Shown here: one piece after another, positions 6,001 to 9,000 of the stretch
Layout: each line of letters begins with the position of its first letter
Numbering within the stretch: position 1 is the stretch's first letter
IMG/VR virus record: IMGVR_UViG_2548876943_000010
Location: 1-9,467 of that record
DNA length: 9,467 bases
Source: a virus
Taxonomy: Duplodnaviria > Heunggongvirae > Uroviricota > Caudoviricetes
Strand: one strand, 5' to 3'
Program-made: the position numbers

Positions 6001-9000
6001 TGCACTGCTGAAACAGTATGGTATACGCCTGACGGCTAATCAGGCATATCACCAGATGGTGAAACTGGGGATCGTCGAGCAGCGCGAACGATACAGTCGT
6101 ACCGCGATTAACAACATCAAAAAATTCTGGTCGCTGACAGCGAAAGGCTGTCATGTTCGGCAAGAACATCACCAGTCCCGCAAATCCGCGCGAGACGCAG
6201 CCGCATTTCTTCGAATCCCGATTCCCTGAGCTGTTAAAGCTGCTCGATACCGTTCATTGAGGTGACCGTGAGAGCACTACTGACCCCTGAAATTGCCCCG
6301 CGTATGGGGATCGTATTGTTCAGGCCAGGTTCAGAGCTGATGCCCCTGTTTATGCAGGGGCGTGTCCTGCTGGAGCCTGAGCCGGAGCGTTATTCATCTT
6401 TCGCCAGTGGTGCCGTTCCGGCGGCATCACAACCGCTGGCGGATGATCCTGCCGTTCGGGCCGTGTTCCGCAATGAGGCAGTGATCCGTCGTGCTGGTGG
6501 CGTGGAATGTCTTGAAAGCTGGTTACTTCGTGAAAAAGGCTGCCAGTGGCCTCATTCCGACTGGCACAGCGAGAACATGACCACAATGCGACACGCTCCG
6601 GGTGCAATCCGTCTGTGCTGGCACTGCGATAACCAGCTGCGCGATCAGTTCACGGAACGGCTGGAATCAATGGCAACGGATAACTGTGCCCGCTGGGTGT
6701 TGTCTGTTGTGCGTCGGGATCTCGGTTTTGATGACAGTCACGTTGTGACAATGCCGGAACTGTGCTGGTGGCTGATTCGTAATGATCTGGCGGATGCCTT
6801 ACCGGAAAGTGCGGCCCGTAAGGCACTGAGATTACCGAAGCCTGTTGTGCCGTCTGTTACCCGGGAAAGTGACCTTGTGCCTTCGGTTCCTGCCACCAGC
6901 ATCATCCAGGATAAGGCGAAAAAGGTGCTGGCGCTGAAAGTGGATCCGGAGTCGCCGGAGTCTTTTATGTTACGCCCAAAACGTCGCCGCTGGGTTAATG
7001 AAAAGTACACGCGCTGGGTTAAGACACAGCCGTGTGCATGTTGTGGAAAGCCCGCTGATGATCCCCACCACCTGATAGGTCACGGTCAGGGTGGAATGGG
7101 AACAAAAGCGCATGACCTTTTTGTGTTGCCTTTGTGCAGAAAGCATCACGACGAGCTGCATGCGGATACCGTGGCATTTGAAGAGAAGTATGGCTCCCAG
7201 CTGGAGCTGATATTTCGTTTTATCGATCGTGCGCTGGCAATAGGCGTACTGGCGTAAGTGGAGAACGAGCATGAACCTTGAAGCCTTACCAAAATATTAC
7301 TCCCCAAAATCTCCAAAACTGAGTGATGACGCACCGGCGACAGGCTCTGGTGGTTTAACAATTACGGATGTAATTGCTGCGCAGGGGATGGTGCAGTCGA
7401 AAGCACCACTGGGTTTTGCCTTATTCCTGGCAAAAGTTGGTGTTCAGGATCCTCAGTTTGCGATTGAAGGTCTGCTCAATTACGCGATGGCACTGGATAA
7501 CCCGACATTGAATAAATTGAGTGAAGAAACCCGGTTACAGATCATCCCTTACCTTGTGAATTTTGCCTTTGCTGATTATTCCAGGTCTGCGGCAAGTAAG
7601 GCTCGCTGTGAGCATTGTGCTGGTACTGGATTTCATAATGTATTGCGCGAGGTGGTGAAACACTCCAGAAGCGGGGAATCTGTTATCAAGGAAGAGTGGG
7701 TGAAGGAACTATGTCAGCATTGTCATGGTAAGGGAGAAGTCAGCACAGCGTGCAGAGGGTGTAAGGGTAAAGGTATTGTCCTGGATGAAAAAAGAACCCG
7801 GCTTCATGGTACGCCTGTTTATAAGATTTGTGGGCGTTGCAATGGTAACCGGTTTAGCCGTTTACCAACCACACTGGCGCGGCATCATGTCCAGAAGCTG
7901 GTACCTGCCCTGACGGATTATCAGTGGTACAAAGGATATGCAGATATCATTGATAAACTGGTTACAAAGTGCTGGCAGGAAGAAGCATATGCAGAGACAC
8001 AATTGAGAAAAGTGACAAGATAAATGATTTTCGCCGAAGATGGCGACATGATGCTTGCATTTTTCAAAAAATATGGATAAGATTTTCCCAACGATGGGCT
8101 TTGTATGTCTACCGTTGATAAGATTTAAGAACCCGCCGCTGAGCGGGTTTTTTTGTGCCTGATGTCTCATGAAACTATGAAATGGATTGGTACGTTAAAC
8201 ATTTTTTCTTATTATCTTTTAGATTTTGGAGAGATGGGTAACGTCTGTATTCCAGAAACTCGATGAATATTTAATAAATTAGTTCAATGATGCTTCTAGG
8301 TTATGAGTGTAATGAAAAAGGTATTAATAGCAGCGATAGGTTTTTGTTTAGTTGGTTGTGCAGGTATGAAATTACCTGAGTATTCGCAAGTTAAAGCAAG
8401 TCCGTATTATACAGATTGCCGTGCGTTTGCCATGGATGTTTATAAAAATGATGGATACAGCAAAATTGCGAAAACCACTATCCTTAGCATGGATGATGTG
8501 AAGGCTAGATATATTGTTACAGGGTGTGTAGTTGCTATGGGGAAAAACACTGTAGAGGAAATTAAAGCTGATCTCTCTGCTAAAGGGAGTTCTTTTGGGC
8601 TTATCAGTGGTGCTTGTTCTAGTGCTGCATGTCGGGTTGATGTAGAGCAGCAAATGAACGCTTATATACTTGGTAGTTATTATGCTGCAAATAAAAAATT
8701 CCCGGATAAAATGAAAGCAGAGTTTTAAGCAAACCTTGTTTTCGATTATATGCCGAAGATAAATGTTAGTAACGGCATAATAAGTAAATATATAGCTGTG
8801 ATAGCAACCCGCCACTGAGCGGGTTTTTTATTTCGGAATTAATTACGGACCGTTATTATTCTGCTCCCGGCCCTTTAGCTCAGTGGTGAGAGCGAGCGAC
8901 GCATAATCGCCAGGTCGCTGGTTCGAATCCAGTACAACGCGCCACACTTATTTTCCCTGGCTCGCTTTTGCGGGCCTTTTTTTTAAATGTCTCACAATTC

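Follow-up and report, generated by a model that had tools for sequence, protein, structure and literature searches.

The antiterminator Q of phage λ (λQ; PDB 4MO1 and 7UBJ–7UBN) belongs to the Qλ family (PF03589) and consists of a helical body with a helix-turn-helix (HTH) motif (residues 61–113 and 153–207) and a zinc-ribbon arm (residues 114–152) whose two finger motifs share one zinc (PMC9388147). The arm touches positions 11–13 of the Q-binding element (QBE), sigma region 4 and the zinc-binding domain of β', and residues 1–44 refold, with NusA, into a torus at the channel through which RNA leaves (PMC9388147). DNA-binding regions of the Q protein of phage phi80 were studied in λ/phi80 chimeras, as can be taken from the reference to Guo & Roberts (2004) in PMC9388147. 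The subject of the present analysis is a Q protein encoded in a stretch of 9,467 nucleotides from a virus of the Caudoviricetes (IMG/VR record IMGVR_UViG_2548876943_000010, positions 1–9,467), referred to as the window throughout. The gene (7271–8023, + strand, ATG start) is of the ydfT/quuQ type and specifies 250 amino acids. We put at roughly 85% the probability that its product is a λ-family Q, the late antiterminator of a lambdoid prophage resembling Shiga toxin (Stx) phages, with a doubled arm that probably forms two tandem zinc ribbons. The protein is of a known type, a λ-family Q like YdfT and phi80 Q that is met with extremely often, and does not represent a new class of regulator.

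Membership in the Qλ family emerged from profile, sequence and structure comparisons. In a Pfam profile search of the protein, PF03589 ('Antitermination protein Q') was the sole family above threshold (173 bits versus a cut-off of 26.7; E = 1.5e-51), and residues 1–250 matched positions 1–252 of the 253 in PHROG 127 ('anti-termination protein Q-like'; E = 1.9e-107). Affiliation with Q21 (PF06530) or Q82 (PF06323) was considered and rejected since neither profile was matched in Pfam even at E ≤ 1. The top match among PDB sequences was λQ (7ubm_Q; E = 2.7e-37), in an alignment split in two: query residues 1–120 were placed on λ residues 1–125, and query residues 160–250 on λ residues 117–207. 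The λ motif CRDCHGTG is thus matched twice, and about 48 residues of the query (~113–160) are left without a λ counterpart. λQ was also the sole convincing structural match of the full-length AlphaFold2 model (predicted local distance difference test score, pLDDT, 76; Foldseek match to 7ubn_Q, E = 5.5e-12). An earlier note on this DNA had envisaged a distinct structural class of late antiterminator, or some other regulator at the Q position; given homology to λQ over the whole length, neither idea survived profile search and structure prediction.

Homology extends into the segment that gives λQ its torus. Residues 1–44 (7271–7402, + strand) align with λQ residues 1–44, the torus or nozzle part, with many identities, including the conserved stretches SPKSP, ATxS and TDVxAAxGM. 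pLDDT is low over these residues, in keeping with the disorder expected of them in the free state. The genomic position likewise is that of Q: the gene lies 3' of replication, nin-like and DUF968 genes, and is followed by a promoter–terminator unit and then by lysis and terminase genes, the latter read in an identical prophage of Escherichia coli E2863, where holin, lysozyme, Rz and terminase genes are located 3' of the unit.

The four cysteine motifs highlighted in the earlier note are present as described there. In the translation they read CEHCAGTG (residues 113–120), CQHCHGKG (148–155), CRGCKGKG (161–168) and CGRCNGNR (187–194), corresponding to nucleotides 7607–7852; motifs 1 to 3 are complete CxxCxGxG motifs, motif 4 is CxxCxGxR, and the distances between their first cysteines are 35, 13 and 26 residues. 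All eight cysteines (C113, C116, C148, C151, C161, C164, C187, C190) as well as G153, G166 and G192 showed zero variation among 101 close homologues, and the same positions were invariant in an alignment of 42 sequences spanning 30–100% identity. Judged by this invariance in both sets, the motifs are clearly under selection and not due to chance. The contrast drawn previously between DnaJ-type motifs and a Cys4 finger of λQ is a false one: the λQ finger (CRDCHGTG-x18-CGRCKGVG) is itself made of two DnaJ-type motifs, and the two proteins differ in having two versus four such knuckles.

A census of the family indicated the frequency of the longer arm. Searching 1.84 billion cluster representatives (50% identity) gave 207 family matches, of which those with at least 190 residues were examined. 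Among these, at least 28 representatives display a strict four-pair pattern, a few more do so with small deviations, and about eight have a λ-like two-pair arm, proportions that are indicative only, as the ranking of the census favours relatives of the query. From these sequences the doubled arm appears to be the common form in the family, with λ and P22 belonging to a short-armed minority. Four pairs are hence standard in a known Q family, of which phi80 Q and YdfT are further examples, and the repeats represent its regular zinc region. Within E. coli, 2465 of 5426 complete genomes contain DNA that resembles the gene at 80% identity or more and is annotated as 'antitermination protein' or ydfT. 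The Stx2k-converting phage phiSTEC1575 encodes a 99.6% identical Q upstream of tRNAs, stx2kAB and holin; Stx2c phages carry a 98.4% identical Q gene, and phages mEp460 and Tritos have near-identical ones.

The arm can be divided into a module shared with λQ and one that is additional. C161/C164 and C187/C190 align with C118/C121 and C144/C147 of λQ at identical spacing. Based on this alignment, knuckles 3 and 4 (7751–7852, + strand), with 18 residues between the motifs, correspond to the λQ-type zinc ribbon and are predicted to bind zinc. The additional module (7607–7735, + strand) comprises knuckle 1 (C113, C116), a β-hairpin (residues 121–147) and knuckle 2 (C148, C151); it sits inside the arm because the λQ arm (residues 114–152) is where the alignment gap falls. 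Both structural models, when analysed with DSSP, show long hairpin strands at residues 121–131 and 137–147 (pLDDT ~77–87) between knuckles 1 and 2, short partner strands at 110–112 and 156–158, and one isolated bridge each at residues 160 and 195. In the models this hairpin draws knuckles 1 and 2 close to each other. Ribbons closed separately by knuckles 1 and 2 and by knuckles 3 and 4 would be expected to give such a pattern.

Variation among the 28 strict four-pair representatives points in the same direction. Motifs 2 and 3 are joined by five residues in all 28, motifs 3 and 4 are 18 residues apart, the λ value, in 26, and between motifs 1 and 2 the chain runs for anything from 10 to 56 residues. 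The CxC form is seen at motif 3 in 20 of the 28 and at motif 1 in none. As the short-armed relatives P0177, P0229 and P0252 bear the CxC form, which occurs only at motif 3, they have kept motifs 3 and 4 and lack motifs 1 and 2 together. Motifs 1 and 2 most probably bind a second zinc, giving rise to two tandem ribbons joined by a fixed five-residue linker. Motif spacing, the joint loss of motifs 1 and 2 and the strand partners assigned by DSSP favour this tandem pairing (1+2, 3+4) over the interleaved centres of DnaJ (1+4, 2+3). Local alignment of the first module with the second scored 40.5 (shuffle mean 21.4, standard deviation 4.7). An internal duplication of the ribbon is therefore plausible but not demonstrated, because the score is carried mainly by the Cys/Gly motifs.

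Immediately 3' of the gene lies a unit with the anatomy of λ pR', recognized by reading the sequence, comparing it with λ and phi80 and folding it; a scan for consensus promoters and terminators listed neither the promoter (8055–8083) nor the terminator (8127–8154). The late promoter (+ strand) is composed of a −35 element TTGCAT (8055–8060), a 17-bp spacer and a −10 element TAAGAT (8078–8083). Six base pairs further on, the same distance as in λ pR', begins the −10-like sigma-dependent pause element AACGATGGG (8090–8098, + strand) at the transcript start, a 9-mer identical to that of λ. The λ counterpart reads TTGACT-17-TAAATT-6-AACGATGGG; that of phi80 reads TTGCAT-17-TAGATT, its −35 element being identical to the one in the window and an annotated gp17(Q) site being located within its spacer. 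Because the λ QBE and the annotated phi80 Q site both fall between −35 and −10, we assign the putative QBE, by position only, to the spacer TTTTCAAAAAATATGGA (8061–8077, + strand). The 3' ends of the three spacers are alike, with an A-rich run followed by TGG(A/G) (AAATATGGA here, AAAACTGGA in phi80 and AAAATTGGG in λ), whereas their 5' parts differ, as expected of Q-specific QBEs.

The intrinsic terminator that had been proposed at 8130–8154 is real and maps to 8127–8154 (+ strand), about 65 nt from the inferred transcript start. It has a stem formed by 8127–8136 and 8143–8152 and a T-run at 8148–8154, and its folding energy of −13.9 kcal/mol (z = −3.3) was reached by none of 200 shuffled sequences. 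It would correspond to tR' and is the predicted target of Q. The Stx2k phage has an identical promoter and pause-element unit and a conserved terminator; in the K-12 Qin prophage the promoter is conserved, with an identical spacer, and the terminator is kept with changes.

The λQ mechanism is the best supported one, and we infer it for the 250-residue Q by homology with λQ. By analogy, Q would bind the QBE in the spacer of the adjoining pR'-like promoter and load on RNA polymerase paused at the sigma-dependent element AACGATGGG. Its N-terminal ~44 residues would then refold to build a nozzle on the exit channel for RNA, and polymerase would be carried past the terminator at 8127–8154 and later terminators into moron, lysis and morphogenesis genes. 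It is tempting to speculate that the second ribbon and the length-variable hairpin (residues 113–155) provide most Qλ-family proteins with a contact that is absent in λQ; candidate partners would be DNA upstream of the QBE, sigma region 4 in its new position and the zinc-binding domain of β'. We regard this idea as tentative and as somewhat more doubtful than probable.

An alternative view of the arm is that the four motifs constitute a genuine DnaJ-type cysteine-rich domain with interleaved, V-shaped zinc centres (1+4, 2+3), possibly engaged in DnaJ-like protein binding. We consider this unlikely. The resemblance to DnaJ stands as far as the four CxxCxG motifs are concerned, and the DnaJ_CXXCXGXG profile (PF00684) does respond to them (E = 3.5e-7), as do anti-TRAP and BSD2, with weak matches spanning motifs 2 and 3; the precomputed Pfam annotation of close homologues already pairs PF00684 with PF03589. 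The 13 residues from C148 to C161 come close to the spacing of the two cysteine pairs of anti-TRAP, as supported here by the spans of the anti-TRAP alignments. The score of 30.8 bits, however, stays below the Pfam cut-off of 32.7, and λQ with its two motifs also matches the profile below threshold (23.1 bits), which argues that the match reflects a type of motif and not a domain. NCBIfam DnaJ models match the cysteine region alone, with scores far under their cut-offs, and neither a J domain nor a DnaJ C-terminal domain was matched by any profile in the Q protein. Moreover, the λQ motifs equivalent to motifs 3 and 4 share one zinc (PMC9388147), and short-armed relatives lose motifs 1 and 2 together. 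A segment of 10–56 residues between motifs 1 and 2 is also hard to square with pairing alongside a segment between motifs 3 and 4 that is fixed at 18, and the DSSP strand partners suit tandem ribbons.

Two further possibilities concern the protein as a whole. That a regulator other than an antiterminator merely occupies the Q slot is extremely improbable: the impression in the earlier note that the zinc region looks unlike λQ was all that spoke for it, next to the lack of any experiment on this allele in the searchable literature. Against it stand end-to-end homology with λQ, from the N terminus that forms the torus through the HTH body to ...VTR at the C terminus, the exclusive Pfam assignment to PF03589, and a cognate λ-like promoter, pause element and terminator immediately 3' of the gene. 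There is also a small chance that the gene, although it looks intact, has no function and is a leftover of a defective prophage, a view often taken of ydfT in K-12 Qin. The 2465 E. coli genomes with similar DNA often have one copy each, and many copies reside in cryptic prophages, Qin included. Yet the open reading frame (ORF) is uninterrupted, conservation extends to the eight cysteines and the regulatory unit, the complete genome of an Stx2k-converting phage includes a 99.6% identical gene, near-identical genes are found in mEp460, Tritos and Stx2c phages, and downstream of the gene in the identical E2863 prophage the lysis and packaging genes are complete.

Several points nevertheless weigh against a functional λ-family Q with two tandem ribbons. 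The best PDB matches of a model of the arm alone were DnaJ-type cysteine-rich domains (~51 aligned residues), which would be compatible with a more DnaJ-like arrangement. The zinc pairing is argued indirectly from sequence and models, and the bias of the census towards relatives of the query has been mentioned above. Many Q copies are part of defective prophages such as K-12 Qin, which calls for caution about activity in this host, and functional data on this Q allele were not found in the searchable literature.

The neighbourhood of the gene displays additional features. Two near-identical intrinsic terminators, 8127–8154 (AACCCGCCGCTGAGCGGGTTTTTTT) and 8806–8832 (AACCCGCCACTGAGCGGGTTTTTT), flank an ORF for 141 amino acids (8303–8728, + strand) whose product has a lipoprotein-type signal (…LVGCAG) and matches PHROG 4748 (function unknown) over its full length; a Pfam match to this ORF was not found. 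In sequence this arrangement looks like a moron cassette that was inserted into the Q-dependent leader with duplication of the terminator. The ORF is also present in phage phiSTEC1575-Stx2k, where it likewise separates Q from the tRNA and stx2k genes. Further downstream, 8875–8934 (+ strand) is a partial match to the Rfam tRNA model (37.3 bits; model positions 7–64 of 71), and an ARAGORN scan of the window listed no tRNA. The equivalent place is taken by a 71-nt tRNA-Met (RefSeq) in the identical prophage and by tRNA-Met, -Arg and -Arg in the Stx2k phage; 8875–8934 is probably left over, in degenerate form, from the tRNA cluster of Stx phages. A strong match to the Rfam small RNA family STnc100 (9021–9211, + strand; 138 bits versus a gathering score of 47) lies in the late leader region and ends at a terminator-like hairpin (9181–9200).

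The E. coli E2863 prophage that matches the window shows the late layout of Stx phages (Q, tRNA, DUF6645, DUF1378, holin, lysozyme). Because it has this layout and no stx genes, it is an stx-less relative of Stx2k and Stx2c phages with which it shares Q. Directly 5' of Q, 6262–7257 (+ strand) encodes a protein of the DUF968/YdfU type with an HNH-like C-terminal Cys/His region, as in ydfU-ydfT of K-12 Qin. More distant from Q, an ORF following an O-like replication gene (3586–4080, + strand) encodes a PerC transcriptional-activator domain (E = 1.1e-9), and its counterpart in the Stx2k phage is annotated as a PerC-family regulator.

As a discovery the gene is of little value, for thousands of genomes have it annotated as an antitermination protein and its family is a textbook one. 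A Q of the same type, 99.6% identical, sits immediately upstream of stx2k; in Stx phages, Q drives toxin genes from this position. Since this type is found there and also in Stx2c phages, the way in which it is loaded bears on toxin expression. The solved Qλ structures all show the short-armed λ protein, whereas most sampled lineages of the family have the doubled arm. If the second ribbon does make an extra contact, the λQ loading-complex structures would depict a minority, short-armed version of the family mechanism.

Compared with λQ, the protein is homologous over its whole length (~34–42% identity, depending on the alignment method) and shares the N-terminal torus segment, the HTH helical body, a zinc ribbon of two CxxCxGxG knuckles 18 residues apart, the C-terminal helix and the position of the gene. 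What λQ does not have are residues ~113–160 of the 250-residue Q, that is, knuckle 1, the 27-residue hairpin, knuckle 2 and the five-residue linker. Accordingly, the arm measures 39 residues with one zinc in λQ and ~87 residues, probably with two zincs, in the window. The order of downstream elements (−35, 17 bp, −10, 6 bp, AACGATGGG, terminator) is common to both loci; by contrast, the promoter spacer with the presumed QBE differs in sequence, and the terminated leader of ~65 nt is shorter than that of λ, the 6S RNA of 194 nt.

The cysteine-rich domain of DnaJ (PF00684) and its relatives BSD2 and anti-TRAP are comparable in motif type, but Q differs by its sub-threshold score, its lack of J and C-terminal domains and its 35/13/26 spacing; the zinc centres of DnaJ are interleaved, while for Q the sequence and the models favour a tandem order. 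The Q protein of phi80 (gp17, JX871397) is 40% identical and has a four-Cys-pair arm with the same five-residue linker and 18-residue second hairpin. The pR' region of phi80, with its −35 element TTGCAT, short leader and terminator, is organized as in the window. phi80 Q differs in its length of 269 residues, a longer excursion between motifs 1 and 2, a motif 3 of the CxC form and another spacer/QBE sequence. YdfT (QuuQ) of the K-12 Qin prophage, annotated as 'putative antitermination protein Q', is of equal length, 93% identical (18 substitutions) and equipped with a four-pair arm. Both loci have a ydfU/DUF968 gene upstream and the promoter spacer and terminator downstream. The Qin copy, however, is part of a cryptic prophage and is followed by csp genes, whereas the copy in the window is followed by a lipoprotein moron, a tRNA remnant and late genes.
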